NCBI RefSeq assembly: GCF_901765095.1
Contig: NC_044037.1
Location: 104,359,279-104,423,278 of the forward strand
Source of the DNA: Microcaecilia unicolor
Taxonomy: Eukaryota
Direction: 5' to 3'
DNA length: 64,000 nt
The position numbers were made by a program, and so were the translations under genes. Each line of letters starts with the position of its first letter. Position 1 is the first letter of the stretch. Shown here piece by piece: positions 7,552 through 56,340 of the stretch. Under the pieces are notes generated by a model that worked only from the letters and a program-made list of their open reading frames with translations, ran no database searches and had not been told where the DNA came from.

Positions 7552-8634
7552 ATGGGGGGAAGGCCGACAGTCGCTCAAAAGAGCATGGTTCGGGATAAGG
7601 TATCTTTCAAAGATATCACCATAACAGGGAAGATAGAGTATCCTGATAGTGAGGTTGCAAAAGAGATTGTAGTAGATCGGGTATCTTTAAATAACAATAA
7701 AAATCAGACAAAAGATTGCCAATTAATACTGTCAAGTACTAAGCATGATGTACTTAGGAACAACAAACATAGTTTGAAATGTCTATATGCGAATGCCAGG
7801 AGCCTAAGAAATAAGATGGGGGAGTTGGAATATATTGCACTAAATGAAAAATTAGATATAATAGGCATCTCTGAGACCTGGTGGAAGGAGGATAACCAGT
7901 GGGACACTGTCATACCGGGGTACAAATTATATCGTAGTGATAGGGTGAATCGGATTGGTGGAGGGGTAGCATTGTATATTAACGAGAGCCTTGAATCAAA
8001 TAGATTGAAAATTCTGCAGGAAACAAAACACTCCTTGGAATCACTGTGGATTGAAATTCCATGTGCAAAGGGGAAAAGGATAGTGATAGGAGTGTACTAC
8101 CGTCCGCCTGGCCAGGACGAACAGACGGATGCGGAAATGTTAAAGGAAATCAGGGACGCAAACAAACTGGGCAATACAATAATAATGGGGGATTTCAATT
8201 ACCCGCATATAGACTGGGTTAATGTAACATCTGTACACGCAAGGGACATAAGATTTCTTGATGAAATCAAGGACAGTTTCATGGAACAGCTAGTTCAGGA
8301 GCCGACAAGAGAAGGAAAAATACTAGACTTAGTCCTTAGTGGTGCTCATGATCTAGTGCAGGGGGTAACGATACGAGGGCCGCTTGATAACAGTGATCAT
8401 AATATGATCGGTTTTGATATTGGCATTGAAGGAAGTGAAACTAGGAAATCAAGTACGCTAGCGTTTAACTATAGAAAAGGTGATTACGACAAAATGAGAA
8501 AAATGGTGAAAAAAAGACTGAAAGGAGCAGCTCGCAGAGTAAAAAACTTGCATCAGGCGTGGATGCTGTTTAAAAACACCATCCTGGAGGTTCAGGACAA
8601 ATATATTCCACAGAAAAAAGGGAAAAAAGACTAA
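7552..8634 (+). CDS. LINE ORF2, apurinic-endonuclease-like domain segment, ending at an in-frame stop
   Basis: Carries EN motifs (ISETWW, LYRSDR, GGGVALYI, GDFNYPHIDW, SDHNMI). Confidence 0.8.
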   Translation: MGGRPTVAQKSMVRDKVSFKDITITGKIEYPDSEVAKEIVVDRVSLNNNKNQTKDCQLILSSTKHDVLRNNKHSLKCLYANARSLRNKMGELEYIALNEKLDIIGISETWWKEDNQWDTVIPGYKLYRSDRVNRIGGGVALYINESLESNRLKILQETKHSLESLWIEIPCAKGKRIVIGVYYRPPGQDEQTDAEMLKEIRDANKLGNTIIMGDFNYPHIDWVNVTSVHARDIRFLDEIKDSFMEQLVQEPTREGKILDLVLSGAHDLVQGVTIRGPLDNSDHNMIGFDIGIEGSETRKSSTLAFNYRKGDYDKMRKMVKKRLKGAARRVKNLHQAWMLFKNTILEVQDKYIPQKKGKKD

Positions 8635-8812
8635 ACGTCAGCCGGCGTGGCTAAACAGTAAGATAAAGGAAATCATTAGAGCCAAAAAACAATCCTTCAG
8701 AAAGTGGAGAAGAGAACCAACTGAAAGTAACAGGATAGATCATAAGGAATGCCAAGCCAAATGCAAAGCGGAGATAAGGAGGGCAAAAAAGGACTTTGAG
8801 AAGAAATTAGCG

Positions 8813-10570
8813 TTGGAAGCAAAAATACATAGTAAAAATTTTTTTAGATACATTAAAAGCAGGAAACCGGCCAAAGAGTCGGTTGGGCCGCTGGACGAAA
8901 ATGGTGTTAAAGGGGCGATCAAGGAGGACAAAGCCGTAGCGGAGAAATTAAATGAATTCTTTGCTTCGGTCTTCACCGAGGAGGATTTGGGGGGGACACC
9001 GGTGCCGGAAAGAATATTTGAAGCGGGGGAGTCGGAGAAACTAAACAAATTCTCTGTAACCTTGGAGGATGTAATGGGTCAGTTCAGCAAGCTGAAGAGT
9101 AGTAAATCACCGGGACCTGATGGTATTCATCCCAGAGTATTAATAGAACTAAAAAATGAACTTGCGGAGCTACTGTTAGAAATATGCAATCTGTCCCTAA
9201 AATCGAGTGTAGTACCGGAAGACTGGAGGGTAGCCAATGTTACTCCGATTTTTAAGAAGGGTTCCAGAGGAGATCCGGGAAATTATAGACCGGTGAGTCT
9301 GACGTCGGTGCCGGGCAAGATGGTGGAGGCTATTATTAAGAATAAAATTGCAGAGCATATACAAAAACATGGACTGATGAGACAAAGTCAGCACGGATTT
9401 AGTGAAGGGAAGTCTTGCCTCACCAATCTAATGCATTTTTTTGAGGGGGTAAGCAAACATGTGGACAATGGGGAGCCGGTTGATATTGTATATCTGGATT
9501 TTCAGAAGGCGTTTGACAAAGTGCCGCACGAAAGACTCCTGAAGAAATTGCAGAGTCATGGAATCGGAGGTAGGGTATTATTATGGATTAAGAACTGGTT
9601 GAAAGATAGGAAGCAGAGAGTAGGATTGCGTGGCCAGTATTCTCAGTGGAGGAGGGTAGTTAGTGGGGTCCCGCAGGGGTCTGTGCTGGGTCCGTTGCTT
9701 TTTAATGTATTTATAAATGACCTAGAGATGGGAATAACTAGTGAGGTAATTAAATTCGCCGATGACACAAAATTATTCAGGGTCGTCAAGTCGCAGGAGG
9801 AATGTGAACGATTACAGGAGGACCTTGCGAGACTGGGAGAATGGGCGTGCAAGTGGCAGATGAAGTTCAATGTTGACAAGTGCAAAGTGATGCATGTGGG
9901 TAAGAGGAACCCGAATTATAGCTACGTCTTGCAAGGTTCCGCGTTAGGAGTTACGGATCAAGAAAGGGATCTGGGTGTCGTCGTCGATGATACGCTGAAA
10001 CCTTCTGCTCAGTGTGCTGCTGCGGCTAGGAAAGCGAATAGAATGTTGGGTGTTATTAGGAAGGGTATGGAGTCCAGGTGTGCGGATGTTATAATGCTGT
10101 TGTATCGCTCCATGGTGCGACCGCACCTGGAGTATTGTGTTCAGTACTGGTCTCCGTATCTCAAAAAAGATATAGTAGAATTGGAAAAGGTACAGCGAAG
10201 GGCGACGAAAATGATAGTGGGGATGGGACGACTTTCCTATGAAGAGAGGCTGAGAAGGCTAGGGCTTTTCAGCTTGGAGAAGAGACGGCTGAGGGGAGAT
10301 ATGATAGAAGTGTATAAAATAATGAGTGGAATGGATCGGGTGGATGTGAAGCGACTGTTCACGCTATCCAAAAATACTAGGACTAGAGGGCATGAGTTGA
10401 AGCTACAGTGTGGTAAATTTAAAACGAATCGGAGAAAATTTTTCTTCACCCAACATGTAATTAGACTCTGGAATTCGTTGCCGGAGAACGTGGTACGGGC
10501 GGTTAGCTTGACGGAGTTTAAAAAGGGGTTAGATAGATTCCTAAAGGACAAGTCCATGGACCGCTATTAA
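8813..10570 (+). CDS. LINE ORF2, reverse transcriptase domain plus C-terminal region
   Basis: Carries RT motifs (PGPDGIHPRVL, YRPVSLTSV, FDKVPHERLL, VPQGSVLGPLLF, FADDTKLF) and a CR1-type C-terminus (LEYCVQYWSPY...). Confidence 0.85.
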   Translation: MEAKIHSKNFFRYIKSRKPAKESVGPLDENGVKGAIKEDKAVAEKLNEFFASVFTEEDLGGTPVPERIFEAGESEKLNKFSVTLEDVMGQFSKLKSSKSPGPDGIHPRVLIELKNELAELLLEICNLSLKSSVVPEDWRVANVTPIFKKGSRGDPGNYRPVSLTSVPGKMVEAIIKNKIAEHIQKHGLMRQSQHGFSEGKSCLTNLMHFFEGVSKHVDNGEPVDIVYLDFQKAFDKVPHERLLKKLQSHGIGGRVLLWIKNWLKDRKQRVGLRGQYSQWRRVVSGVPQGSVLGPLLFNVFINDLEMGITSEVIKFADDTKLFRVVKSQEECERLQEDLARLGEWACKWQMKFNVDKCKVMHVGKRNPNYSYVLQGSALGVTDQERDLGVVVDDTLKPSAQCAAAARKANRMLGVIRKGMESRCADVIMLLYRSMVRPHLEYCVQYWSPYLKKDIVELEKVQRRATKMIVGMGRLSYEERLRRLGLFSLEKRRLRGDMIEVYKIMSGMDRVDVKRLFTLSKNTRTRGHELKLQCGKFKTNRRKFFFTQHVIRLWNSLPENVVRAVSLTEFKKGLDRFLKDKSMDRY

Positions 10571-11018
10571 ATGGACTTGGAAAAATTCCGCATTTTTAGG
10601 TATAACTTGTCTGGAATGTTTTTACGTTTGGGGAGCGTGCCAGGTGCCCTTGACCTGGATTGGCCACTGTCGGTGACAGGATGCTGGGCTAGATGGACCT
10701 TTGGTCTTTCCCAGTATGGCACTACTTATGTACTTATGTACTAGTAGTTTGCGGAAGTCGGTTAGTTCGTAGGTCGTTTTCAGGTTGCGTGGTACTGTAT
10801 TCCAGAAGTGTTCTTCTGACATTGAAATCTGTGGCAGAGAATACAGAGGAGCAATTGCCACTGAACCAGGTGCAACAAGCAGTTCCTGCCCAAATTGTGC
10901 ACTACTGATGACTCCTTGCTGGCAGAAGTTATGGTGTTGGAACCATCGGCAGATACTAAGCCTTCACTACATCTAGTGGTATCTATAAAATATAAGTTGA
11001 CAGCCATGTAATAGCATC

Positions 11019-16486: not shown

Positions 16487-16645
16487 ATTATGTATCATAC
16501 CTGATAATTTTCTTTCCATTAATCATAGCTGATCAATCCATAGACTGGTGGGTTGTGTCCATCTACCAGCAGGTGGAGATAGAGAGCAAACTTTTGCCTC
16601 CCTATATGTGGTCATGTGCTGCCGGAAACTCCTCAGTATGTCAAT
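16487..16645. repeat. DIRS-like element terminal inverted repeat (3' ITR of the minus-strand element)
   Basis: It is the reverse complement of 21903-22066. Confidence 0.8.
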
Positions 16646-17139
16646 ATCAAAGCTCCATCCGCAGGACTCAGCACTTAGAGAATTACACCCACGAAGGGAC
16701 ACTCTGCCCAGCTCACCACCGCCGAAACGGGGGAGGGGAATTAACCCAGCTCATCCCCACACAAGTGGGGGAGGGGAATCTGTCCAGCTCATCCCCGCGG
16801 AGCGGGGGAGGGACACCACACCCGCCGATGCGGGGGGATCTGGCTTATCCTGCAACCGCAACCGCGGGAGGAGCTGACTGACCCTAACACCGCCGAAGCG
16901 GGAGGGGTACAAAGCTGCCCTACAGCCGCACGAAGCGGGAGGGAGTGCCGGCAGAATTTAAATCTCAATCCGGCCCCGTAAAACGGAGGGGAGAGGAATG
17001 CAGCAGCTCACTGTAACACAAACTCGTCTCAACTCTTGAAGAATCCAAGTGAAAGAAGAACTTGAACACGAAGTCCTCCTGAAGTAACTGAAGGCTAAAC
17101 TTGAACCTAAAATTCAACCAGAATATAAACAGTACAGAT

Positions 17140-17250
17140 ATCTGGGAGGGGCTATGGATTGATCAGCTATGATTAATGGAAAGAAAATTATCAGGTATGA
17201 TACATAATTTTACCTTCCATATCATCAAGCTGATCAATCCATAGACTGGT
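17140..17250. repeat. DIRS internal complementary region (ICR)
   Basis: 17140-17206 is the reverse complement of 16487-16553, and 17207-17250 is the reverse complement of about 22020-22063. Confidence 0.7.
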
Positions 17251-17504
17251 GGGATGTACCGAAGCAGTACTCACCCAGGGCGGGACATAGAAATCCCTGA
17301 CCGCAACACTGAAGCTCCAAACCGGGCCTCCGCCCGAGCAGCCACAGTCAAGCGGTAATGCCTGGCAAAGGTATGGGCCTTCCCTGCGGCCACCTAAGCC
17401 GCTGCAATGGCTTCCTTGCCCATCTTGCCACTGTAGGCTTAGAATCCTGCAGACCCTTACGAGGACCTGTAAACAGGACAAACAGATGATCCGATTTCCG
17501 GAAA

Positions 17505-19868
17505 TCATTGGTCACTTCCAAGTATCTGATGATGACTCGTCTCACATCCAGAAATTGAGAGCAGAGTATTCCTCTGGGTAGACCTCCCTACGAAAGGAAG
17601 GGAGACTGCTTTCAACGTCAGGTCTTTCAGAGATGCCCTCGACAAGGGTTCAAAAGGCGGCTTCTGCAATGCTCTTAGCACCAGGTTGAGATTCCACGCA
17701 GGCACCACTGAGTGCAGAGGAGGGCGCAGGTGATTAACTCCCTTGAGAAAGCGCACCACATCTGGCTGCGAAGCCAGGGAAGCACCCTTCAGGCGGCCCC
17801 TGAAGCAAGCCAGAGCCGCTACCTGAACTTTCAGGGAACTGAGCGACAGGCCTTTGTCCAGACCTTCTTGCAGGAACGCCAACACTGAAGAAATTGGAGC
17901 AGTGAAGGGAGAAAGTGAGCCTGCTTCACACCACGCTGCAAAGATACGCCAAAGCCTGGCGTAAGCCGTAGAAGTAGAGCGCTTCCTCGCTCTCAGCATA
18001 GTGGCGATGACCTTGTCTGAGAAGCCCTTCTTTCTCAGACGCTGCCGCTCAATAGCCAGGCCGGAAGACCAAAGGGGGAGGGATCCTCCATCACCACAGG
18101 ACCCTGATGTAACAGGCTCCACTGGCAGCCGCAGAGGATCGCCGACTGAGAGCCTGATCAAGTCCGCATACCAGGGACGTCTGGGCCAATCCGGACCCAC
18201 CAGGATTACCCTGCCGGGATGCTTTGCCACCCGGTCTAGCACCCTGCCCAACATGGGCCAGGGCGGGAACACATAGAGAAGCTCTTGTGTCGGCCACCGT
18301 TGGAGAAGAGCATCTACTCCCAGGGATCGAGGGTCCCGTCCTCTGCTGAAAAAGCGCGGCACTTGGCAATTGGCCGATGACGCCATAAGATCTAGGCTCG
18401 GCTGGCCCCAGCGCTTCGTGATGCCCAAGAACGCCTGAGCAGATAGCTGCCACTCTCCGGGCTCCAAGGTATGGCGACTGAGAAAGTCCGCCTTGACATT
18501 CATGACTCCGGCAATGTGGGCCGCTGACAGCTGTTCCAGGTTCGCTTCCGCCCACCAGCATAGATTCATGGCCTCCTTGGCTAGAGGGGCGCTCTTGGTA
18601 CCTCCCTGGCGGTTGACATAGGCCACAGCCGTGGCATTGTCTGACAGGACCCGTACAGGCTTCAACACCAGTACCGGGATGAACTCCAACAACACCAACC
18701 GAATGGCTCTGAGTTCCAGGAGGTTGATAGACCACTTGCCTCTGCAGGAGACCAGAGCCCCTGCGCTGTCCTTCCCAAGCAGTGAGCTCCCCAGCCCATC
18801 AAAGAGGCGTCTGTCGTGACGACAATCCACTCCGGGGTCACCAGAGGCATTCCTGCAGACAACTTGTCTGTCTGCGTCCACCAGCTCAGCGCCTTGCGCA
18901 CTGCTGGGTCCAAGGGAAGGCGCACAGCATAATCCTCCGACATCGGAGTCCAGCGCAGCAGCAGAGATTGTTGTAGTGGTCTCATATGAGCCCTGGCCCA
19001 GGGCACTACTTCCATCGTGGCCGTCATAGAGCCCAACAGCTGCACGTAGTCCCAAGCCCGAATAGGAGAGGCTACTAGGAACTAGTCCACCTGAGCCTGA
19101 AACTTGACAATCCGATTGTCTGGCAGGAACACTCTGCCCACTTGGGTGTCGAATCGAACTCCCAGATACTCCAGGGACTGAGTCGGGCGCAGCTGGCTTT
19201 ACTCCCAGTTGATGATCCACCCCAGGGAGCTCAAAAGAGCAACCACCCGGTTCACAGCTTTGCCGCACTCTGCATAAGAGGGGGCTTGGATCAACCAGTC
19301 GTCCAGATAAGGATGGACTTGAACTCCTTCCTTCCTCAGGAAGGCCGCGAAGACCACCATTACTTTGGAGAAGGTCCGCGGAGCAGTAGCCAACCCGAAC
19401 GGGAGGGCTCTGAACTGGAAGTGTCGGCCCATTACTGCAAAACGCAGAAAGCGTTGATGAGGAGGCCAGATGGGAATATGCAAGTACGCTTCCTTGATGT
19501 CCAAGGATGCCAGGAACTCTCCTGCCTTCACTGCCACTATAACAGAGCGGAGGGTCTCCATGCGAAAGTGCCGAACTTTCAAGGCCCAATTGACCCCTTT
19601 GAGGTCGAGGATAGGCCGTACAGAACCTCCTTTCTTTGGTATCACAAAGAAAAAGGAGTAACATCCCTTGCCAAGCTGATTTTCTGGCACCGGAACGACC
19701 GTCCCCAGGCGGATCAGATTGTTCAAGGTCTGCTGCACTACCACAGCTTTGACCGGAGACTTGCAGGGAGAGAGTACAAACCCGTCTTTTAAGGGTCGGC
19801 AGAACTCTAGCTTGTAGCCGTCTCTGATGACTTCCAGCGCCCAAGCGTCTGAAGTTATTGTGGTCCAC
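17505..19868 (-). CDS. DIRS-like RNase H, DIRS-specific conserved region and YR N-terminal domain. Real coding starts near 19200 after a -1/+1 frame change from the RT ORF; 19200-19868 of this ORF is out-of-frame overlap
   Basis: Shows LLELRAIRLVL...NVKADFLSR (RNase H), LLYVFPPW...RVILVGPDWPRRPWYADL, and GFSDKVIATMLRARKRSTSTAYARLWRIFAAWCE...VPAWNLNLVLRAL (YR core-binding domain). The ORF stops before the catalytic RHRY region, and only ~270 nt remain before the ICR. Confidence 0.75.
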   Translation of the reverse strand: MDHNNFRRLGAGSHQRRLQARVLPTLKRRVCTLSLQVSGQSCGSAADLEQSDPPGDGRSGARKSAWQGMLLLFLCDTKERRFCTAYPRPQRGQLGLESSALSHGDPPLCYSGSEGRRVPGILGHQGSVLAYSHLASSSTLSAFCSNGPTLPVQSPPVRVGYCSADLLQSNGGLRGLPEEGRSSSPSLSGRLVDPSPLLCRVRQSCEPGGCSFELPGVDHQLGVKPAAPDSVPGVSGSSIRHPSGQSVPARQSDCQVSGSGGLVPSSLSYSGLGLRAAVGLYDGHDGSSALGQGSYETTTTISAAALDSDVGGLCCAPSLGPSSAQGAELVDADRQVVCRNASGDPGVDCRHDRRLFDGLGSSLLGKDSAGALVSCRGKWSINLLELRAIRLVLLEFIPVLVLKPVRVLSDNATAVAYVNRQGGTKSAPLAKEAMNLCWWAEANLEQLSAAHIAGVMNVKADFLSRHTLEPGEWQLSAQAFLGITKRWGQPSLDLMASSANCQVPRFFSRGRDPRSLGVDALLQRWPTQELLYVFPPWPMLGRVLDRVAKHPGRVILVGPDWPRRPWYADLIRLSVGDPLRLPVEPVTSGSCGDGGSLPLWSSGLAIERQRLRKKGFSDKVIATMLRARKRSTSTAYARLWRIFAAWCEAGSLSPFTAPISSVLAFLQEGLDKGLSLSSLKVQVAALACFRGRLKGASLASQPDVVRFLKGVNHLRPPLHSVVPAWNLNLVLRALQKPPFEPLSRASLKDLTLKAVSLPFVGRSTQRNTLLSISGCETSHHQILGSDQ

Positions 19869-19969
19869 TCGCCCATAAACGAGGACAGCCGTCCTCCAAT
19901 CTGCACTGGGGCGTGGACCAAGGCCCCGTCATTGGGTACAAGACCCTGGGGGAGGACCGGAGGGAGCAC
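19199..19969 (-). CDS. DIRS-like reverse transcriptase domain
   Basis: Carries RT motifs (FFFVIPKKGGSVRPILDLKGVN, FLASLDIKEAYLHIPI, FRALPFGLATAPRTFSKVM, YLDDWLI). Confidence 0.85.
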   Translation of the reverse strand: MLPPVLPQGLVPNDGALVHAPVQIGGRLSSFMGEWTTITSDAWALEVIRDGYKLEFCRPLKDGFVLSPCKSPVKAVVVQQTLNNLIRLGTVVPVPENQLGKGCYSFFFVIPKKGGSVRPILDLKGVNWALKVRHFRMETLRSVIVAVKAGEFLASLDIKEAYLHIPIWPPHQRFLRFAVMGRHFQFRALPFGLATAPRTFSKVMVVFAAFLRKEGVQVHPYLDDWLIQAPSYAECGKAVNRVVALLSSLGWIINWE

Positions 19970-21596
19970 CTCCGGGACGGCGGTCTCTGCGAAAGGAATA
20001 CTGCTTGGGGCAGAAGTTCCTCTTGAAGGAAGAGGGGGCAGAGGAGCCCGACCTGCCCGGGCGGTACCGACGGGCTTCCTGAAACCGTCCTCTGGAGGTA
20101 CCAGGGCGAGTACTAGCCCGAGCCCTGACCTCTGGTAACTTCTTGCCCTTAGACGTGCCGAGATCGGTCACGATTTTGTCCAGCTCGACCCCAAAGAGCA
20201 GCTTGCCTTTAAAAGGCAATCTAGCCAGGCGGGATTTAGAGGCGTGGTCAGCAGACCAATGTTTCAGCCAAAGCCACTGCCGCGCAGAGATTGTCTGAGC
20301 CATGCCTTTCGCTGAGGCCCTCAAGACATCATACAGCAAGTCTGCCAAATAGGCTAAGCCCGATTCCAGGGCCGGCCAATCAGCCCTCAAGGAAAGATCC
20401 GAGGGGAAAGCCCGCTGCACCATAGTCAGGCACGCCCTGGCCACATAGGAGCCGCAAATTGAGGCCTGCAAACTTAAAGCAGCTGCCTCAAAGGACGACC
20501 TTAAGGCCGCCTCCAATCTTCTGTCTTGGGCGTCCTTTAGGGCCGTGCCACCTTCCACCGGCAACACCGTTTTCTTAGTCACCGCAGTGATTAAAGAATC
20601 CACGGTAGGCCACAGATAGGCCTCACGTTCACTTTCAGTCAAAGGATAGAGGCGGGACATAGCCCTAGCCACTTCAAGGCTCGCTTCCGGGACATCCCAT
20701 TGAGCCGCAATTAAGGTGTGCATGGCATCATGCACGTGGAAGTTTCTAGGCGGGCGCTTCGTCCCCAGCATAATGGCAGAGCCAACAGGGGCTGAGGGAG
20801 AGACGTCCTCCGGAGAGGAAATCTTCAAAGTGTCCATGGCCTGTACCAACAGGTTGGACAAATCCTCTGAGCTAAAAAGCCGCGCTGCAGAGGGGTCATC
20901 CGCTCCATCCGAGCGGGGATCCGTCTCCTCCAAGGAATCCGCAAAGGACCGTTGGGAGACCTCAGATACGCTGCCCTCATCTACATCAGAGGAGACAAAG
21001 TCCTCCAAGGCCTGGGAATCAACCCGAGGGCGTTTACCTCTGGGAACCTCAACCTCTTTACCAGACGAGGGAGCAGGGGCAGCGTTTTGCATAAGGAAGG
21101 CCTGATGCAGCAGCAAAACAAACTCGGGGGAGAAACCCCCCAGACTGTGTACTTCCGCAGCCTGGGCAACAGCCCTAGACGCACCCTCAACCAGCGCTCG
21201 CAAGAGCGGGGGAGAGACATGCTGCGCATCCAAAATGGCGTCCGGCGCGACACTCCGCGAAGGAGCCGCGCGGGAAGAACGGCGCTTAACTTTAGCCGCT
21301 TTTGTGCCGTCGCCCAAATTAAGGGCGTTCATGGCATTAATGTCTCCAACCTCAAGGGCGGCCCAAGAAGAAGCCGTCCGAGCCGCGTGGCCGGCCAAGA
21401 TGGCGGAGGCGAGGAGCGGGGGATGGGCGTTTATGGCGGGAAAAACCACCACGCCGGAGGAAGGACCGGGACATTCATCGGTCACGAAACTGTCACCCAA
21501 CAAGGGCGAATCAGGCTTTAAGACCCCCGCATCCCCTCTAGAAGCGCTCAAGCGATCCGGGTAGCGACTCTTTGCGCCCTCGCCCTCCGACGCCAT
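19929..21596 (-). CDS. DIRS-like ORF1 (gag-like), 555 aa, intact
   Basis: It is the first ORF of the element, and a paralogous fragment lies at 1109-1327. Confidence 0.6.
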   Translation of the reverse strand: MASEGEGAKSRYPDRLSASRGDAGVLKPDSPLLGDSFVTDECPGPSSGVVVFPAINAHPPLLASAILAGHAARTASSWAALEVGDINAMNALNLGDGTKAAKVKRRSSRAAPSRSVAPDAILDAQHVSPPLLRALVEGASRAVAQAAEVHSLGGFSPEFVLLLHQAFLMQNAAPAPSSGKEVEVPRGKRPRVDSQALEDFVSSDVDEGSVSEVSQRSFADSLEETDPRSDGADDPSAARLFSSEDLSNLLVQAMDTLKISSPEDVSPSAPVGSAIMLGTKRPPRNFHVHDAMHTLIAAQWDVPEASLEVARAMSRLYPLTESEREAYLWPTVDSLITAVTKKTVLPVEGGTALKDAQDRRLEAALRSSFEAAALSLQASICGSYVARACLTMVQRAFPSDLSLRADWPALESGLAYLADLLYDVLRASAKGMAQTISARQWLWLKHWSADHASKSRLARLPFKGKLLFGVELDKIVTDLGTSKGKKLPEVRARASTRPGTSRGRFQEARRYRPGRSGSSAPSSFKRNFCPKQYSFRRDRRPGGAPSGPPPGSCTQ

Positions 21597-21902
21597 ATGC
21601 CACGAGGAGAAGAATCGGGGAACCCCCTGCCCGCTATAAAAAGGTAAAAATTACCTGCTTGCCGCTCCGAGCTGTAACGACCTGGTGTCCCAGTGAGTAG
21701 CTGCAATAAACGTTTAAATAAACGTCAAAATAAACGCCTTTAAGGACGTTCAAAATTTTTTTTTTTTTAACGGAGCCAGCGGGAGGGGGGAGAAAAGGAG
21801 GGACCTGGCACCACCAGGTTTGCACTTGCTCAAAAGAGCCCTCAACCCCAGGCACTCAACAAAACCTAAGAATTAGGCTTGGAGGCGTAGCCAGAGCTGC
21901 TG

Positions 21903-22066
21903 CTGTGTGTGACCACCACCTGCTGAGATAGAGAACATACTGGGGAGTTTCCGGCAGCACATGACCACATATAGGGAGGCAAAAGTTTGCTCTCTATCTC
22001 CACCTGCTGGTAGATGGACACAACCCACCAGTCTATGGATTGATCAGCTTGATGATATGGAATGGA
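21903..22066. repeat. DIRS-like element terminal inverted repeat (5' ITR)
   Basis: It is the reverse complement of 16487-16645. A solo homolog lies at 2560-2700. Confidence 0.8.
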
Positions 22067-22489: not shown

Positions 22490-22960
22490 CATGAAATAAA
22501 ATTGAATATCACTAAAACTGCTTAAAAATTATTGTAGCTGGTGGAAACAGCACTAATAAAGGCTGTATTTTGTGTTCATTTTTCTACACTGTTCTATACA
22601 ATACATAGCCAGATTTCAGTGAGGATATCCTGTTTACTGATGGGTTCATCTCAACTGTTGTAATCTGCTTTGGGAAGCCTGGTGTTATAAAGATTGGAAG
22701 TAAAATTAAACTCTCCTTTCATTGGAGCACATGGAATCACATCTTCCCCTCATCTCCTTTGTACAAATGGATTATTCTGGTTTGAGCCTGTTTCAGGGAC
22801 AACTGGTTTAAGTCAAAATAATAAAAATAAATATTTTCTTTCATGCAGATCTCTCATTTGCTTAAACATAACTAAATGGGCCATATAAGTTCCTAATGCA
22901 GTCCATTACTTTTCTTATATTTTGTCCTTGTGATGACTTATACTGTGCCAAAACCTGCCG
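22490..22960 (+). repeat. Unclassified interspersed repeat (family X)
   Basis: ORF 22694..22888 is ~85% identical to ORF 35791..35994 on the opposite strand, and the flanks also match 36967-37110 in reverse complement. Confidence 0.7.
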
Positions 22961-26481: not shown

Positions 26482-28832
26482 TTGCATTGCCTCCAATCAG
26501 GGCCGTGCCAATGCGGTAAGTGGGGTAAGCAAGGCAGGGGGGCGCCTGCCTTTGAGGGGCGCCGCTGCCCTGCCATCCCTGCCTTCCACTCGCTTGCAAA
26601 ATCTTTTACCTGAAGTTGTGATTCTCCTACCTCCCCTGCCCTCCTTTTCATGGCAAACTGGAAGTGAAAGCAACGCAACGCAACGCAGCAGTATTCACTG
26701 AGGCAGGCAGGCTCTTCAAGTTATTTGAGAGAATGCAACCAGATTGCTATATATGTCTTTGGTTTGGGGATAACTCCTCACTCAGGGTGAACTTCAGAGC
26801 TTGAACAGCATTCATATTAAAGAGACTGGGAGAATGGGCGTGCAAGTGGCAGATGAAGTTCAATGTTGACAAGTGCAAAGTGATGCATGTGGGTAAGAGG
26901 AACCCGAATTATAGCTAGGTCTTGCAAGGTTCCGCGTTAGGAGTTACGGATCAAGAAAGGGATCTGGGTGTCGTCGTCGATGATACGCTGAAACCTTCTG
27001 CTCAGTGTGCTGCTGCGGCTAGGAAAGCGAATAGAATGTTGGGTGTTATTAAGAAGGGTATGGAGTCCAGGTGTGCGGATGTTATAATGCCGTTGTATCG
27101 CTCCATGGTGCGACCGCACCTGGAGTATTGTGTTCAGTACTGGTCTCCGTATCTCAAAAAAGATATAGTAGAATTGGAAAAGGTACAGCGAAGGGCGACG
27201 AAAATGATAGTGGGGATGGGACGACTTTCCTATGAAGAGAGGCTGAGAAGGCTAGGGCTTTTCAGCTTGGAGAAGAGACGGCTGAGGGGAGATATGATAG
27301 AAGTGTATAAAATAATGAGTGGAATGGATCGGGTGGATGTGAAGCGACTGTTCACGCTATCCAAAAATACTAGGACTAGAGGGCATGAGTTGAAGCTACA
27401 GTGTGGTAAATTTAAAACGAATCGGAGAAAATTTTTCTTCACCCAACGTGTAATTAGACTCTGGAATTCATTGCCGGAGAACGTGGTACGGGCGGTTAGC
27501 TTGACGGAGTTTAAAAAGGGGTTAGATAGATTCCTAAAGGACAAGTCCATAGACCGCTATTAAATGGACTGGAAAAATTCCTCATTTTTAGGTATAACTT
27601 GACTGGAATGTTTTTACGTTTGGGGAGCGTGCCAGGTGCCCTTGACCTGGATTGGCCACTGTCGGTGACAGGATGCTGGGCTAGATGGACCTTTGGTCTT
27701 TCCCAGTATGGCACTACTTATGTACTTATGTACTTATGTAAATTTTAAAAGTGCTAAAAATACGTTTTTTAAGTATTTGCATTAAATCTAATTGCAGAAT
27801 TCAGGTGCTGGGAGTCTGTACTTGGTTGTCATATGCTCAGATTTGTTTAAATCATATGCAAATTACTCTGTTTTTGGGAGGTTCACATTTGCATATTTAT
27901 GGATCAAAAATGATGGGAATGTTTACAGCCTTAATGTTAGGTCATGGCTCTGATCAAAAGTGTGAAGTTTGATCCAAAAACGAAGGGTTTATCTAGTGTT
28001 TTTCACTAAGAATTCCCATGAGTGTCTGTATGTTAATCTGCATTCAAATAGAGCTCTCTGATTGGATGATCAGCTTCTGTTAGAAATCTGCCGGGAATGG
28101 AACAGAGTGAGACAGCAACTGATCGTCGGTTTGGTCAAGAGAGACATGCAGCTGTGAGTTCCTGTTTGTGTTGACTGAAATTATAAGAGTGCCTGATTAT
28201 GTGGTAAATGAGAAAATATGAGTGAAAAGAGGTTGGTGGAGTTTGAGGTTTCGCTAGTGAGAAAAGGATCTGAATATTTCAGGATTACTTGAAGTTTATG
28301 AAGAATAGAAAAGGGTGAATTTCAGTTTAAGAGTGTTTAAATCCTATAAGCTATATAAAGGCTAGGTAGATTTAAGTGACTGTAAGCAAGGAAACCTTAA
28401 TATTTGATCTGAAATAAATATTTGATCTGAGATAGTTGATCAGAGATAAATGTTTGATCTGAATTATATCCTTTGGTGCAAAGGAGATTAGAAAAAGAAT
28501 CTTTGGAAACTAAGAGGATTTTGCCCACATTTTGAATTAGCATTCCTATTTTGAGTTGGAAATCTTTGGAAACTAAGAGGACTTTGCCCACATTTTGAAT
28601 TAGCATTCCTATTTTGAGTTGGAAATCTTTGAAGTGTTATGAAAATACATTTTGCTTTAATGACATTGCTAAACTTTAGAGTCAGAGACTTATCAATGAG
28701 GGATACCTACAGTGCTATTTTTTCCTGAGGTCTGGCTTACTTGCCTGCTCCCTTCTGTTCCTGCTCTGCTAGGCGGAGAGGGGGCGCCAACTGATAGTCT
28801 GCAGGGGGGCACCAGAGACCCTAGGCACGGCC
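26482..28832. mobile_element. Non-autonomous DNA-transposon-like element with CAGGGCCGTGCC termini, carrying a nested CR1 fragment and internal 62-bp tandem repeats
   Basis: The 5' end is cagggccgtgccaatgcggtaagtggggtaagca and the 3' end ...ggcacggccctg is its inverted complement. The internal CR1 copy is at 26820-27735. Tandem repeats lie at 28395-28625. Confidence 0.55.
26820..27735 (+). mobile_element. 5'-truncated copy of the same CR1-like LINE (RT C-terminus plus 3' UTR and (tacttatg)n tail)
   Basis: Near-identical to 9830-10740. ORF 26922..27563 repeats the C-terminal RT sequence. Confidence 0.85.
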
Positions 28833-35639: not shown

Positions 35640-37110
35640 ATTTCAAAGACAGAAATTGAATAATGAGGCACAGCTACCTTCATACGTTTTGGATGTTACT
35701 GAATTCTATTATTCTGTCACACTGTATTTCCAGTTTTGGCACAGTGTAAGTCATCACAAGGACAAAATGTAAGAAAACCAATGGACTGCATTAGGGGCTT
35801 ACAGCCCATTTAATTATGTTTAAACAAATGAGAGATCTGCATGAAAGAAAATATCTATTTTTATTATTTTGACTTATGAAACCACTCGTCTCTGAAACAT
35901 GCTCAAAACACAATAATCCGTTTGTACAAAAGAGATAAGGTGAAGATGTGATTCTATGTGCTCCAATGAAAGGAGAGTTTAATTTTACTTCCAATCGTTA
36001 TAACACCAGGATGCTCATTTTCGAAACAGATGGACGTCCAAAAAGTGACATAAATCGGCACTTAGACGTCCATCTCTCAGAGACGTCCAAATCAGTATAA
36101 TCGAAACCTGATTTTGGACGTCTTTATCAGAAGTCCGTCAAAATCTCAAGGGGGTGTATCAGAGGCGTGGTGAAGGCGGGACTTGGGCGTTCCTAAGACT
36201 TGGATGTCTTTGAGCCATAATGGAAAAACGCAGAGATGTCCAAGAGTTGGACATTTTTACCCTGACCTGTTTTTATTACGAATAAGGCACAAAAAGGTGC
36301 CCAAAATGACCACTGGAGGGAATCAGGGATAACCTCCCCTTACTCCCCCAGTGGTCATTAACCCCCTCCCACTCTTAAAAAACATCATTAAAAATATTAC
36401 TTGCCAGTCTCAGATGTCATACTCAGGTCCATGACAGCGCACACAGGTCCCTGGAGTAGTTTCGTAGTAGGTACAGTGCATGTCAGACAGTTGGACCCAG
36501 GCCCATCCCCCCTTACCTGTTACATTTGTGGAGGAAACAGCGAGCCCTCCAAACCCCACCAGAAACCCTCTGTACCCACACACAGGTGCCCCCCTTCACC
36601 CGTAAGGGCTATGATAGTGGTGTACAGTTGGAGGTAGTAGGTTTTGGGGGGCTCAGCACACAAGGTAAGGGAGCTGTGTACCTGGGAGCATTTTATGAAG
36701 TCCACTGCAGTGCCCCCCTGGGTGCCCGACTGCTGTCCTGGCATGTCAGGGGGACCAGTGTACTACAAATACTGGCTCCTCCCATGTACAAATGGCTTGA
36801 ATTTGGACGTTTTAGACTTGGACGTCTTTGGTTCCGAAAATCGCCGAAAATCAAAAATGTCCAAATCCAAGGACGTCCATGGTATTTTCAAAATGAAAGA
36901 TGGACGTCCATCTTTTTTCGAAAATGACCTTCTCCCCACTTCCGAATTTGGAGGCTTCCCAAAGTAGATTAAAACAACAGTTAAGATGAGCCCATCAGTA
37001 AACAGGATATCCTCACTGAAATTTGGCCATGTATTACTGTATTGTATAGAACAGTGTAGAAAAATGAGCACAAAAAAACAGCCTTTATTAGTGCTGTTTA
37101 CTTAAGAATA
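35640..37110 (-). repeat. Family X copy split by the nested DNA-transposon insertion (35640-36011 + 36967-37110)
   Basis: See 22490-22960. Continuity resumes exactly after the inserted element. Confidence 0.7.
36012..36966. mobile_element. Non-autonomous DNA transposon (~950 bp) with ~26-bp TIRs (ctcattttcgaaacagatggacgtcc / ggacgtccatcttttttcgaaaatgac) and many subterminal GGACGTC repeats, inserted inside another repeat
   Basis: The TIRs are visible. The host repeat (family X, 35640-37110) reads continuously across the insertion when compared with its paralog at 22490-22960. Confidence 0.7.
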
Positions 37111-37129
37111 TAAGAGTAGCCATACTGGG

Positions 37130-38390
37130 TCAGACAAATGGTCCATCTAGCCCAGTATCCTGTTTTCCAAACAGCAGCCAAGCCAAGTCACAAGTACCTG
37201 GCAGAAGCCCAATTAGTAGCAACATTCCATGCTACCAATCCTGGGGCAAGCAGCTGCTTCCCCATGTCTGTCTCAATAGCAGACTATGGATTTTTCCTCC
37301 AGGAATTTCTCCAAACCTTTTTTAAACCCAGATACACTAACCACTGTTACTACATCCTCCGGCAAAGAGTTCCAGAGCTTTTCTATTCGTTGAGTGAAAA
37401 AATATTTCCACCTATTTTTTTTTTTAAGTATTTCCATGTAACTTCCTCGAGCGTCCCCTAGTCTTTGTAATTTGGGAACGAGTAAAAAAAATCGATTTAC
37501 TTCTACTTGTTCTACACCACTCAGGATTTTGTAGACCTCAATCATATCTCCCCTCATCTGTCTCTTTTCCAAGCTGAAGAGCCCTAACTTCTTTAGCCTT
37601 TCCTCAAACAAGAGGAGTTCTATCCCCTTTATCATTTTGGTCGCTCTTCTTTGAATCTTTTCTAATTCCACTATTTCTTTTTTGAGATACGGCGACCAAA
37701 ACTGAAAATACTCAAGCTGCGGTCAAACCATGGAGCGATACAAAGGCATCATAGTATTTTGTCTTATTCACCATCCCTTTCCTAATAATTCTTAGCATCC
37801 TGATAGCTTTTTTGGCCACTGCCGCACACTGAGCAGAAGACTTCAGCGTATTATCTACAATGACATCTAGATCTTTTTCTTGAGTGCTGACCCCCAAAGT
37901 GAACCCTAGCATCAGGTAACTATGATTCAGATTATTCTTTCCAATGTGCATCACTTTGCATTTGTACACATTAAATTTCATCCGCTATTTGGATGCCCCA
38001 TCTTTCAATTTCCTAAGGTCTTCCTGCAATATTTCACAGTCTGCTCGTGTTTTAACAACCTTGAATACTTTTGTATCATCTGCAAATTTAATCACTTCAC
38101 TCGTCATTCCGATTTCCATGTCATTTATAAATATGTTAAATAGCACCGGTCCCAATATAGATCCCTGCGGCACTTCATTGTTCACCCTCCTCCATTGAGG
38201 GAAATTACAATTTAGTCCTACCCTCTGTTTTCTGTCCAATAACCAATTCCTAACCCACACCAGAACCTTGCCTCCTATCCCATGACTCTTTAATTTTCTT
38301 AGGAGTCTCTCATGAAGAACTTTATCAAAAGCTTTCTGAAAATCTAAATACATCAACCGGCTCACCTTTATCCACAATTCCACCAGCTAC
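37130..38390 (-). mobile_element. Diverged CR1-like LINE fragment (RT plus 3' UTR)
   Basis: ORFs 37273..37671, 37712..37981 and 37985..38383 carry RT motifs (FADDTKVF, VPQGSILGPVLF) and a CR1-type C-terminus. 37130-37210 matches the reverse complement of the CR1 3' UTR. Confidence 0.75.
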
Positions 38391-38489
38391 AATAATTTTT
38401 GAATGTGTTTTAGTGATATTCAGTTTTGATTTCATGATATTTATATCTACATATAGAAATCTTTCAAATAAATTAAGAAGCTGTCAAAT

Positions 38490-47469: not shown

Positions 47470-48480
47470 CTCAATCTTCAACTTTCCCCCCTTTCCATCC
47501 AGCATCTACCCCCTCTCTCCCCCTTTTCCTTCCAGCATCTGCCCCCTCTCTCTCTCCTTTCCATCCAGCATCTGCCCCCTCTCTTCCCTCTTGCCATCCG
47601 GCGTCTATTTTCTCCATCCATGTGTAGTTTTTCTTCTCTTTTCCCTTTCCCTCATCTCTGTCAGTATGCGTCTCCTTCCTCTTTCTTCACTCCCCTCCAT
47701 CCATATGCAACTCCTTCCTCTTTCTTCCCTCTCCTCCATCCATGTCCATTTTTCCTCTCTCCGCCCCTCCATCCATGTTCATCTCACTTCCTCTCTTCCC
47801 TCTCCTCCATCCATGTCCAGCATTTTTCCTCTCTCCACTCCATCCATGTGCATCTCCTCCTGTCTTCCCTCCCCTCCATCCATTTCCAGCATTTCTCCTG
47901 CCCTCCCCTGCATCCATGTACAGCAACTCTCATCTCTCCCCTGCCCTCCCAGCCATCAATATTCAGCAACTCTCCTCTCTCCCCTATCCTCTCCTGCATC
48001 CATGTCCAGCAATTCTCCTCTCTCCCCTGCCCTCCCCTGCATCCATGTCCAGCAACTCTCCTCTCTCCCCTGCCCTCTCCTGCATCTATGTCCAGCAACT
48101 CTCTTCTCTCCCCTGCCCTCCCCTGTATCCATGTTCAGCAACTCTCCTCTCTCCCTTGACCTCCCCTGTATCCATGTTCAGCAAGTCTCCTCTCTCCCCT
48201 GACCTCCCCTGTATCCATGTTCAGCAAGTCTCCTCTCTCCCCTGCCCTCCCCTGTATCCATGTTCAGCAACTCTCCTCTCTCCCCTGTCCCCTGCCCTCC
48301 CCTGTATCCATGTTCAGCAACTCTCCTCTCTCCCCTGTCCCCTGCCCTCCCCAGTATCCATGTTCAGCAACTCTCCTCTCTCCCCTGTCCCCTGCCCCCC
48401 CTGTATCCATGTTCAGCAACTCTCCTCTCTCCCCTGCCCCCTGCTCAGCATCAATGTTCAGCGATTTCTTCCCTGCCCTA
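47470..48480 (+). repeat. Pyrimidine-rich satellite array with a ~43-50-bp unit (catccatgtccagcaactctcctctctcccctgccctcccctg)
   Basis: A tandem periodicity is visible, and the long ORFs at 47411-48504 are its artefacts. Confidence 0.8.
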
Positions 48481-48490
48481 CCTCTTAAAA

Positions 48491-48915: not shown

Positions 48916-49746
48916 TTACTTGAAGTAATCAGTCATAGTCCTCTGTACACTATTGTGTCTGTGAGTTCCATAGACTACGTCTGCCAGACGGTAAAAACTG
49001 TCATAGCACTGACATCCAGTGACCTCCAGATAGGCCCGCACGGTGTTAAGACTCTCCAGCACTCTTGCAAAAGTGACAGGAGGTTGTTGAATTTCGTCAG
49101 CATGTGCCTCACTGCTCATTTCATCATCTGTTTCATCATCAGCCGTTGCCTGCGTGTCGGCCCATATCTCGACATCAGTGCTGTCGTCAGCTGTTTGTAG
49201 ATCGTAATCAACAGCTACGTAGTGATGAAACTCCTCTTCAGTAACACCGGCTGGGATGTCAATAGCCTGTTCATCTGATGCATTTGCAACAGCTGCATCT
49301 GTTTCGTCCCTCTCTACATCCTTAACAAAGCTTGCCCGCTTGTAGCAGTTCACAATGGCTGCCTGTGTAACATGATTCCAGGCTTCTTTCTGCTTTTGTA
49401 GGGAATCCAACAGTGATAGATTACAAGCCAGTTCAACAGCACGTTTATCTTTGCCAGTCTGGTCATCCATAACGCTCATCAGACAACGTAGCACAAGAGC
49501 CCAATAATGTTTTTTGAAATTGGCTATTATGCCCTGATCCATAGGTTGGATCAGAGAGGTAGTGTTTGGTGGCAGGAAGACCACCTTGATGTTAGACAGC
49601 TTGATATCATCACTGTGTGCAGCACAATTATCACAAAGCAACAAAATCTGACGCTTTTGTGCCTGCATTCTAGTGTCTAACTTCTTTAGCCACTGCTTCC
49701 AAATTTCCCCAGTCATCCATGAATTTGCGTTAGCCTCGTATGACAC
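48916..49746 (-). pseudogene. Tigger/pogo DDE transposase catalytic domain (frameshifted relative to upstream pieces)
   Basis: Shows LLLCDNCAAHS...VVFLPPNTTSLIQPMDQGIIANFKKHY, as in the Tigger1/2 DDE region. Confidence 0.8.
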
Positions 49747-53099: not shown

Positions 53100-53330
53100 T
53101 TATCAATTATGAGGCAAAGAGGGGCATTTTCAATATGATGTCTAAGTCCGACTTAGGACATTTTTCAAAAAACGTCCAAAATCCAAATAGGAAAGAAGGT
53201 CATTTTCAAAAGAGAAAAACCTCTTTCTTTTGTTTTCAAAAATACTGTTCTGAATAACATTTTGTGATTTGGACGTTTTGGTTTTTTTGGTTCATTTTCG
53301 AAAAAAAATAAAAAAGTCCAAGTGCAAAAC
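53100..53330. repeat. Fragment related to the same GGACGT-repeat element family
   Basis: Shows ggacgttttggtttttttggttcattttcgaaaaaaaa and ttaggacatttttcaaaaaacgtccaaaatccaaat. Confidence 0.45.
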
Positions 53331-53384
53331 ACACAAAATCAAGCCATTGGGATGTAGGAGGAGCCAGCATTTTTAGTAGACTGG

Positions 53385-53770
53385 CAGTGGTGTGCTGGAG
53401 CCGGCTCGCGGTTGTTACATTTTTAAAGCTCTTGTGAGCCAGTTGTTCTGGCAGGCGAGCCGGCTCCCAAGGGTGACGCAACCCGGCAGTAAGTGAGGTA
53501 AGCATGGCAGGAGGGCGCCACAAGCCATGCTTACACTCCTGCCACTCTGGGGGGTTTAAATCGTTGATTTACCTCCATTGCAGCAGCTGCAGTGGAAGCC
53601 CGTCTCTAGTCTTCCCTTCTTTCCCGTCAGTGTTCCGCCTTCTTCTGATGTCATTTCCTCTTTCCGCGAGGGCGGGACACTGACAGGAAACGATGGGAAG
53701 GCTAGAGATGGGCTTTCACTGCTGCTGCTGCGACGGAGGTAAATCAACGATTTAAACCCCCCAGGAGGCA
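53385..53770. mobile_element. Diverged copy of the same MITE family with an internal palindrome (53530-53760)
   Basis: Shares ...ggcagtaagtgaggtaagcatggcaggagggcgcc... and a hairpin gtttaaatcgttgatttacctccattgcagcagc.../...gctgctgctgcgacggaggtaaatcaacgatttaaac. Confidence 0.5.
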
Positions 53771-53789
53771 GGAGCAAAACGAGGGATGT

Positions 53790-54990
53790 TTGGGGAAGGG
53801 CGGGCAGGTGGACATTGGAGCGGGAGGGCAGGGGAGAGGAGCATCAAAGCCATCGATGGAGATGGATGGGAAGGCAGGGCCCAGGGAGAGAGGAGAAGTT
53901 GCTGGACATGGAGGGGAGGGGAGGGCAGGGGAGAGAGGACAGCTGCTGAATATGGATGGATGGAGGGGGAGGGGAGAGAGGAGAATCGCTGGGTATGGAT
54001 GGCTGGAGGGGAGCGAGGAGAATCGCTGGGTATGGGTGGCTGGAGGGGGGGCAGGGGATAGAAGAGAATCACTGGGTATGGGTAGCTGGAGGGGGAGGCA
54101 GGGGATAGAAGAGAATCGTTGGGTATAGGTGGCTGGAGGGGGGCAGGGGAGAGAGGAGAATTGCTGATATGGATGAATGGAGGGAGGGCAGGGGAGAGAA
54201 GAGTTACTGGACATGGGTGGAGGGGAGGGCAGGGGAGAGGAGAGTTGCTGGATATGGGTGGCTGGAGGGGGGACAGGGGAGAGAAGAGAATCGTTGGGTA
54301 TGGACGGCTGGAGGGGGGCAGGGGAGAGAAGAGAATCGCTGGGTATGGACGGCTGGAGGTGGGGCAGGAGAGAGAAGAGAATCGCTGGGTATGGACGGCT
54401 GGAGGGGGGCAGGGGAGAGAAGAGAATCGATGGGTATGGATGGATAGAGGGGGGCAGGAGAGAGAAGAGAATTGCTGATATGGATGGATGGAGGGAGGGC
54501 AGGGGAGAGGAGAGTTGCTGGATATGGGTGGCTGGAGGGGGGACAGGGGAGAGAAGAGAATCGTTGGGTATGGACGGCTGGAGGGGGGCAGGGGAGAGAA
54601 GAGAATCGCTGGGTATGGACGGCTGGAGGGGGGCAGGGGAGAGAAGAGAATCGATGGGTATGGATGGATAGAGGGGGGCAGGAGAGAGAAGAGAATTGCT
54701 GATATGGATGGATGGAGGGAGGGCAGGGGAGAGGAGAGTTGCTGGACATGGATGGATGGAGTGGAGGGCAGGGGAGAGGTGAGTTGCTGGACATGGGTGG
54801 ATGGAGGGGTGGGCAGGGGGGAGAGGAGGATTGCTGGACGAGTGAATGGAGTGGAGGGCAGGGGAGAGGAGGGTTGCTGGACATGGATGGAGGAGAGGGA
54901 AGGGAGTGAGAAGAAATGCTGGACATGGATGGAGGGGAGGGAAGAGTGAGGAAGGAGATGAGATGAGGGAAAAGGAAAAGAGGAGAAAAA
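53790..54990 (-). repeat. The same satellite in inverted orientation (purine-rich on the + strand)
   Basis: The unit gggtatggacggctggaggggggcaggggagagaagagaatcgct is the reverse complement of the 47470-48480 unit. Confidence 0.8.
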
Positions 54991-55489
54991 CTGCATATGG
55001 ATGAAGAAAATAGGCAGATTCACTGGACAGTCAAGTCTGCGGAGGACCCAGCTTTTATTTATGAATGTAGGGCAAGAAATGAAGAAGAAAAACGGAAAGT
55101 AAAGAAATAAATGGAAAGGAAGCCCTGGAAACTGAGTTAAGAGGACAGATAGCAGCAGAATCGGATACTGGGCCAGCATGATCAGAACAACAAAGTCACC
55201 AGACAACAAAGGTCACCAGACAAACATTATAGTGTTTGGAATATGTCCACTTTGAGAATCAGGTGCTCAACATTAAAAGTTTATATTTATTTACTTATTT
55301 ATGGCATTTTATCTCACATTAAACATGAATTAGATTGGAACCTGGGATCATTTAGTTTTTTTTTTCCTAGAGTAATGCATTGAACTCTCCCCCCAGGCTC
55401 TCTCTCCAGCTATAGCCAGCTCTGCAATTTGTGGGGGGGGGGGGGGCGCAGAGGTGGACCGGGGAGAGAGCATGTTGTTAAACATTTAC

Positions 55490-56340
55490 CAGCACACCAC
55501 TGTGTGGTCCCCCTGACATCCCAGGAAAGCAATAGGGCATCCTAGGGGGCACTGCGGTGGACTTCATAAAATGCTCCTAGGTACACATCTCACCATTTCT
55601 CTCTTACCTTGTGCACTGAGCCCCCCAAAACCCACCCAAAACCCAGTATCCCCAACTGTACACCACTACACCTGTATGGGGCACCTATAGGGGGCACCTA
55701 TATGTGGGTACAGTGGGTTTCTGGTGAGTTTGGGAGGGCTCACAGTTTTCTCCACAAGTATAACAGGTATGGGGAGGTAGGAGCCTGGGTCCACCTGTCT
55801 GCAGTGCACTGCACCCATCACTAGACTACTCCAGGGACCTGCATGCTGTTCTAATGGACCCGAGTATAACATTAGAGGCCGGCAAGTAATGTTTTTAATC
55901 ACATTTTCTGGGGGTGGGAGGGGGTTAGTGACCACTGGGGGAATAAGGGGAGGTCATTCCTGATTCCCTCCAGTGGTCATCTGGTTATTTAGGGCAACAT
56001 TTTGTGCCTTATTCATAATAAAAACAGGTCTAGCTCAAAACGTCTAAGTTTTAGTCCTGGATGGTTTTGTTTTGTTCCATTATGTCTGAAAAACGTCTAA
56101 GTCTTAGGAACGCCCTGAACATGCCCTGGCACTTCCCCTTGAGATTTGGATGCACTTCTGGCGGACTTCAGAGAAAAACATCTAAAAATAGGTTTTGAAA
56201 ATGCTGATTTGGACGTTTTTGTGAGAAAAACATCCAAATGCAGACTTACACCACTTTTTGGATGTTTTTCTCTTTTGAAAATGAGCCTGTTATTTGTGAA
56301 AATCCTTGCGATAGAATGGCCAGGATAATACCAGTATTGA
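55490..56340. repeat. Diverged, inverted copy of the 36012-36966 element family
   Basis: Long stretches are the reverse complement of 36060-36900 (for example ccactgggggaataaggggaggt..., gtacacctccatacaggtgtagtgg...), and GGACGT subterminal repeats are present. Confidence 0.65.

Follow-up and report, generated by a model that had tools for sequence, protein, structure and literature searches.

Repeat X with and without an insert

The window analysed here, a 64 kb stretch of vertebrate DNA, is dense with interspersed repeats. One of these, which we call X, is present in two copies on opposite strands. Copy A (22545-22954, minus strand) is uninterrupted. Copy B, on the plus strand, consists of a left part (35733-36009, corresponding to 22954-22678 of the minus strand) and a right part (36955-37099, corresponding to 22680-22545), separated by a non-coding element of 941-942 nt. 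This element, Y copy 1 (36010-36951, plus strand), is missing from the paralogous empty site in copy A. When the region was compared with the window by blastn, 35733-36010 (+) matched 22954-22678 (-) with 90.4% identity and 36952-37099 (+) matched 22680-22545 (-) with 87.2% identity; the divergence between the two X copies is ~10-13%. Both halves of the filled copy map to one unbroken stretch of copy A, in which they overlap by exactly 3 bases. A sequence-only reading of this DNA had described the X copies as collinear, with one of them split by an insert, and the match of both flanks to the uninterrupted paralogue confirms this. The extents that it gave for X (22490-22960 and 35640-37110) are too wide, as homology spans only 22545-22954 and 35733-37099. 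The CpG observed/expected ratio of the host repeat (35733-36009, 36955-37099) is 0-0.24.

In a three-way alignment, the filled site tracks the empty site up to ...ATAACACCAGG on the left and picks it up again at AGGCTTCCCAAAG on the right. No host bases are lost and none are added, and the overlap of 3 nt reads AGG. The left junction of copy B is ...TTATAACACCAGG|ATGCTCATTTTCG..., the right junction is ...CCGAATTTGG|AGG|CTTCCCAAAG..., and the empty site of copy A is ...TTATAACACCAGGCTTCCCAAAG..., with the target AACACCAGG at 22678-22686. The insert is 941-944 nt long. The right breakpoint, previously placed at 36967, moves to 36951/36955. Loss of flanking sequence had been set beforehand as the outcome that would speak against an insertion; none is seen in the three-way alignment, and the filled/empty relation stands.

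The surroundings of both X copies contain further mobile elements. Where X homology stops at the right edge of copy B (37099/37100), the repeat adjoins the 3' terminus of an older CR1-like LINE on the minus strand (window 37099-38400). Thus, copy B has been struck by at least two different mobile elements. In another CR1-like LINE (7552-10742), the ORFs for the endonuclease (360 aa) and the RT (585 aa), at 7552-10570, are both open. Its RT ORF is 99% identical to Microcaecilia unicolor protein P0023 over 57% of its length, and a second 3' LINE fragment (26822-27734) is 99% identical to this LINE, suggesting that the family was very recently active. From the RT match, the caecilian M. unicolor, or a very close relative, is the probable host of this DNA. 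Copy A is located ~480 bp from the end of a DIRS-like retroelement (16514-22062) with ORFs of 555, 256 and 787 aa, of which the 555-aa ORF matches Pfam LAP2alpha (gag). Inverted repeats of 129 nt, with 97% identity to each other, delimit the element (16514-16641 and 22062-21935). A pogo/Tigger-type DDE_1 fragment at 48916-49746 (276 aa ORF, Pfam E 3e-29) is the sole DNA-transposase remnant among the window ORFs of at least 130 aa; no Y-like termini are found near it.

Motif arrays, termini and second copy of element Y

Y copy 1 has 8-15 stops in every reading frame and no ORF longer than 133 aa. The 133-aa ORF had no homologue among 5.8 billion proteins, and the insert matched no Pfam family better than E 0.1. 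A reading of Y as a structured RNA was rejected, as no Rfam family scored better than E 0.1 and none reached a family's gathering score. Note that the sub-threshold, miRNA-like Rfam hairpin noise in Y arises from inverted GGACGTC pairs. Exact-pattern searches with the Y terminal module and the block common to both Y copies found no match in metagenome contigs or in bacterial/archaeal genomes.

The insert had been described earlier as carrying many GGACGT(C/T) motifs, and counting supports an enrichment. All three occurrences of GGACGTCC in the 64 kb window, and 7 of its 14 GACGTC hexamers, fall inside the 944-nt insert, where ~0.1 GACGTC-type motifs would be expected from the rate elsewhere (Poisson estimate, P ~1e-11). 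In full, the motif reads ATGGACGTCCAT and forms a palindrome of 12 bp. Copy 1 contains 13 GGACGTC-type sites, a count that takes in the CpG-decayed forms GGATGTC, GGACATT and AATGTCC. These sites are confined to the arms: 8 in mixed orientation form the left subterminal array (36028-36260) and 5 (36796-36915) lie in the right subterminal array (36796-36932). Searching the literature for transposons with the GGACGTCC motif gave nothing relevant.

Nearly all surviving CpGs of Y are located within GGACGTC motifs. The CpG is retained at 9 of the 13 sites of copy 1. For the left and the right arm (the latter taken as 36791-36954), the CpG observed/expected ratio is 0.92 and 1.3, respectively, as compared to 0.17 in the core of Y and 0.41 window-wide. 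We infer that the contrast between arms and core stems from selection that acted on the motif while the lineage was active, combined with a fairly recent insertion.

An old, CpG-decayed second copy of Y was found on the minus strand in two parts. The 5' part (55505-56286) is 74.4% identical to insert positions 2-746 and has the 5' flank AAATAACAG. The 3' part (53125-53384) is 68.7% identical to insert positions 744-941 down to 53175 and includes a distal TIR-like module; the exact end near 53125 is uncertain. The sequence-only reading had listed 55490-56340 and 53100-53330 as related, diverged copies. Both are homologous to Y (74% and 69%, respectively), but they are halves of one copy rather than two. 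The motif CpGs of copy 2 have mostly decayed to TG/CA, and CpG is kept at a few sites that have decayed in copy 1, indicating that the ancestral arms carried even more GGACGTC sites. The flanks of copy 2 are unrelated to X, and thus Y moved independently of X. The occurrence of the same element elsewhere without X flanks, along with the nucleotide-precise breakpoints of copy 1, substantiates the earlier claim of a mobile element. The two Y copies have diverged by ~26-31%. This value, the 10-13% difference between the X copies and the motif CpGs kept in copy 1 (9/13) indicate that, provided Y did insert into copy B, copy 1 is much younger than copy 2 and also postdates the X duplication.

The halves of copy 2 are separated by an unrelated 2.1 kb TIR element nested in it (53385-55504, minus strand), which has a perfect 14-nt TIR, CAGTGGTGTGCTGG. 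This element contains a 45-bp G-rich minisatellite of ~24 copies (53857-54941) and an internal palindrome with 79-nt arms (53547-53625 and 53686-53764). With Y copy 1 as a proxy for the empty site, its duplication is CCA (3/3), or CAC/CAG if the TIRs are symmetric 15-mers. If the CAC/CAG duplication holds, the nested element could be another CWG-targeting, Harbinger-like family. At 47485-48484 lies a minisatellite array with a 33-43 nt period that shows 70-75% similarity, in the opposite orientation, to the array inside the nested element (53822-55013); it probably represents this family as well, either as another copy or as a relative.

Copy 1 of Y begins with a terminal module, GCTCATTTTCGAAACAGATGGACGTCC (36013-36039), which starts 3-4 nt from the host junction and which we take as the true TIR arm. 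The inverted repeat pairs 36015-36040 with 36901-36927 (25 of 27 positions matching; blastn E 3e-4) and is part of a longer module, [G]G[C/G/T]TCATTTTCRAAA-N2-4-GATGGACGTCC. The pattern at the 5' end can also be given as GCTCATTTTCGAAA-N3-4-ATGGACGTCC, with inverted copies in the 3' arm, which in copy 1 are located at 36871-36896 and 36902-36932. Seven such TIR-like modules are present over the two Y copies: one at the 5' terminus of each, two inverted in each 3' arm, and a seventh that lies further out and is found in copy 2 only. The last module of copy 1 ends at 36932 and is followed by 19 nt more, TCCCCACTTCCGAATTTGG (36933-36951), before host sequence is reached. The termini of copy 1 read (G)ATGCTCATTTTC... 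and ...CCGAATTTGG. The TIRs of ~26 bp that had been claimed for Y thus exist as an inverted repeat, but only the 5' arm is terminal; the right arm lies 19-22 nt inside the junction, with element bases outside it.

The two copies differ at the 3' terminus. Copy 1 stops at GAATTTGG|AGGCTT, and its right junction falls inside a GAATTTGGACGT-type (GGACGT) motif, as at a non-canonical or truncated end, whereas copy 2 runs on with GATTTTGGACGTTTTTTGAAAAATGTCC...ATTGAAAATGCC, ~50 more Y-like bases that include the TIR-like module. This distal module, GGGGCATTTTCAAT, may be the true 3' TIR of Y, and the right end of copy 1 looks non-canonical. Possibly, copy 1 shed its outermost 3' part after insertion, for example after the transposase had cut there and the end was resected and rejoined; a deletion endpoint at the element/host boundary would then be accounted for. 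Alternatively, the donor from which copy 1 transposed may have had an aberrant end, or copy 2 may have an extra module or adjoin another Y fragment. The putative 3' flank of copy 2 resembles element-internal sequence elsewhere. Because the right end of copy 1 is non-canonical, the register and length of the target site duplication (TSD) cannot be read safely from this single insertion.

Target site and duplicated bases

PIF/Harbinger elements generate 3-bp TSDs, have a 15-bp target preference in vertebrates and usually excise perfectly (PMC2836001). Zebrafish Harbinger3_DR integrates into the palindromic sequence AAACACCWGGTCTTT (PMC3016246). The insertion site of Y copy 1, AACACCAGG (36002-36010, plus strand), matches the core of this target at 9 of 9 contiguous positions. 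AACACCWGG occurs twice in the window, in the filled and the empty X target only, with ~1.3 occurrences expected per 64 kb. Over its full length, the empty site TAACACCAGGCTTCC agrees with AAACACCWGGTCTTT at 10 of 15 positions with CAG in the central register (empirical P 1.8e-3 per position), the right half being poorly matched (GCTTCC vs GTCTTT, 4/9). The left flank of copy 1, including CAG, matches AAACACCWG at 8 of 9 positions (empirical P 3e-4), and the 5' flank of copy 2 does so at 7 of 9 in the same register (empirical P 3e-3). In both Y copies the scored 9 bases end directly at the element start, G(AT)GCTCATTTTC. The joint chance of both left-flank matches is ~1e-5 with a few registers allowed for each; the target-site match was spotted after looking, yet scored against a published consensus.

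The duplicated bases of copy 1 can be read in two registers. On the left, they are either CAG (36007-36009) or AGG (36008-36010). The right junction, GAGG (36951-36954, plus strand), provides either AGG (36952-36954), which agrees with the left copy at 3/3 positions, or GAG (36951-36953), which agrees with CAG at 2/3. The sole perfect 3-nt duplication is thus AGG, one base off the centre of the palindrome, whereas CAG requires a damaged or mutated right copy (GAG). We consider CAG the more likely TSD (left CAG, right GAG), because the symmetry of the target palindrome predicts CWG. In the CAG reading, copy 1 is AACAC-CAG-[GATGCTCA...GAATTTG]-GAG-GCTTCC, and the altered right TSD copy is consistent with a damaged right end. 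Joining of the element's A of GGACGT to the last G of the TSD would produce the observed GGAGG with zero substitutions. Alignment of the empty with the filled site had been proposed as the way to the exact TSD; it yielded the 3-nt AGG overlap, but with the non-canonical right end the register stays AGG or CAG/GAG.

The TSD of copy 2 is decayed or unreadable by flank scoring, and two candidates at this copy were rejected. Its 3' flank, CCCCTCTTT, matches the right half-target at 6 of 9 positions, but near-identical sequence follows an internal module. A TAA duplication identified by eye (cacaaaTAAcagg... / ...cctcaTAAttg) needs much weaker TIRs and conflicts with the site of copy 1.

Superfamily assignment and comparison with known systems

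We conclude with high confidence that Y is a non-autonomous TIR DNA transposon whose past mobility is directly documented. Its target site, the 3-nt duplication and the overall architecture point to the PIF/Harbinger type, and we consider it probable from these sequence features that Y combines a Harbinger3-like target choice and a CAG duplication with a non-canonical right end in copy 1. As part of the same joint reading, the complete element would be ~1 kb long, non-coding and mobilised by the class II cut-and-paste route. This superfamily assignment draws on two Y copies in one window. PIF/Harbinger had also been the suggestion of the sequence-only reading and, by virtue of the target site, it is still the best superfamily guess, but the reason given then, an AGG duplication, is not the usual TWA. 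The Myb-like protein of Harbinger3_DR recognises a 9-bp subterminal motif (PMC9710019). The subterminal architecture of Y, with 13 GGACGTC-type sites in the arms only, fits a pattern of repeated Myb-bound motifs, with binding being putative. Harbinger elements are abundant in another amphibian (PMC5741667).

According to this PIF/Harbinger reading, a transposase acting in trans, together with a Myb/SANT-like partner bound to the repeated palindromic ATGGACGTCCAT-type sites, would have cut the ends of Y. The element would then have integrated at the palindrome-like AACAC|CAG|G, with CAG being duplicated. Later, ~50 nt at the outer right end of copy 1, and some of the right TSD with them, may have been removed, for instance when an abortive excision cut was resected and its ends were joined. 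Such a loss would have left GAATTTGG-AGG-CTTCCC and immobilised copy 1.

A candidate source of transposase was not found in the 64 kb window. Autonomous PIF/Harbinger elements encode a DDE (DDE_Tnp_4) transposase and a Myb-like protein, and the superfamily has terminal inverted repeats of ~15-50 bp at both ends. No Harbinger transposase or Myb-like gene was seen here; a tblastn search with an approximate HARBI1 query returned only noise (E>4). The window ORFs of at least 130 aa matched only RT, endonuclease, LAP2alpha and pogo-type DDE_1 in Pfam, with no transposase-encoding partner of Y. The hallmarks of other mobile-element classes were also evaluated. The empty site CACCAGGCTTCC has no TA or TTAA at the junction, as would be required for Tc1/mariner and piggyBac elements. 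Helitrons insert between A and T, begin with 5' TC, end with 3' CTRR and are without TIRs; the host site of Y, CAGG|CTTC, is not between A and T, and Y has inverted repeats. Neither end of Y has the A-rich or microsatellite tail of a SINE or LINE, and the insert contains no RT or other Pfam domain and no Rfam match better than E 0.1. As for hAT elements, no 8-bp TSD was detected: copy 1 duplicates 3 nt only, with a right end that may be deleted, and copy 2 shows none by eye.

These results bear on the possibility that Y belongs to another superfamily, with either a true 3-bp AGG TSD (CACTA/EnSpm-, Zator- or Academ-like) or a longer TSD (8 bp, hAT) that was mostly lost with the right terminus. 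In its favour, no duplication other than AGG is perfect, the non-canonical right end may have cost copy 1 part of a longer TSD, and no Harbinger protein was detected in the window among ORFs of at least 130 aa (Pfam) or with the approximate HARBI1 query (tblastn). Moreover, subterminal repeat arrays are known also in CACTA, hAT, P and Mutator elements. We nevertheless regard this assignment as unlikely, given that the termini of Y are not CACTA/CACTG, that the flanks of copy 2 show no 8-bp duplication by eye and that the Harbinger3_DR target match at both independent 5' junctions would be left unexplained.

The junctions of copy 1 could also be ascribed to a fragment of Y captured in X as filler DNA when a double-strand break was repaired, or through template switching, with AGG as microhomology. 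The right junction does lie within a Y motif and not at an element end, an overlap of 3 nt is in the size range of microhomology, and the junction AGGCTT, which includes AGG, agrees with the motif continuation ACGTTT at 4 of 6 bases. Capture would not, however, account for a left junction within 3-4 nt of the family's 5' terminal module, as in copy 2, for a break exactly on a rare Harbinger-type target 9-mer, or for host bases that are neither lost nor added, and is very improbable in our view. We assign a similarly low probability to a history in which copy A is not ancestral, Y having been present before the X duplication and later being precisely excised or deleted from A. PIF/Harbinger elements usually excise perfectly and take one TSD copy with them (PMC2836001), so that excision, too, is expected to leave a precise empty site. 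However, such a history needs an additional event, and excision of an element whose right end is defective is unlikely, unless that end was damaged only afterwards. As excision and insertion alike show Y to be mobile, only the chronology would change, not the nature of the element.

The filled/empty pair is a clean record that this family of non-autonomous DNA transposons was once mobile in a caecilian genome. Caecilian genomes consist of ~70% repeats, with DNA transposons being ~20-fold rarer than retrotransposons (PMC10195157). In light of this scarcity, a well-defined Y family has modest curatorial value, and its 5' terminus, terminal module and GGACGTC arrays are a usable seed for family annotation. 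The family may already be present, unnamed, in a published RepeatModeler library. Beyond repeat annotation the finding is of little importance, reflecting routine, well-understood mobile-DNA biology. Y does hint that the palindromic target preference of zebrafish Harbinger3_DR reaches amphibians. More speculatively, a caecilian Harbinger lineage might have kept the Harbinger3_DR palindromic target (AACACCWGG...) for >400 My and might use the 12-bp ATGGACGTCCAT, repeated ~13-15 times, as a Myb-like docking site; we treat this as a tentative idea. If it were true, the Y family would be a natural probe of recognition by the domesticated HARBI1/NAIF1 proteins in tetrapods, and Y would represent a Harbinger burst in a soil-dwelling amphibian.

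Among known systems, Y was compared with three. The non-autonomous CACTA/EnSpm elements are like Y in having a 3-bp TSD (probable in Y) and multiple subterminal repeats, which in CACTA elements are bound by an element-encoded protein. They differ in their termini, CACTA/CACTG as opposed to G(AT)GCTCATTTTC in Y, and targeting of a specific palindrome is not characteristic of CACTA elements. The Tourist-like MITEs of plants, including mPing, belong to PIF/Harbinger and are, like Y, non-coding elements with TIRs and, probably also in Y, a 3-bp TSD. Further points of likeness would be a target preference that extends beyond the TSD, and excision that is precise. In contrast to Y, which is ~1 kb long with a target other than TWA, they use TWA (TTA/TAA) targets, are mostly <500 bp and are without long palindromic subterminal arrays.

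The third comparison is with zebrafish Harbinger3N_DR and its partner Harbinger3_DR, the lineage closest to HARBI1. Harbinger3N_DR and Y are both non-coding derivatives mobilised in trans (for Y this is inferred), and short repeated subterminal motifs and a 3-nt duplication are common to both. Harbinger3_DR and Y also have the target core of AAACACCWGGTCTTT in common (9/9 contiguous and 10/15 overall, with a poor right half in Y). Harbinger3_DR has a clean CWG pair, whereas Y has AGG or CAG/GAG, and the hosts are a fish and a caecilian, respectively. This comparison covers the target and the architecture of the elements.
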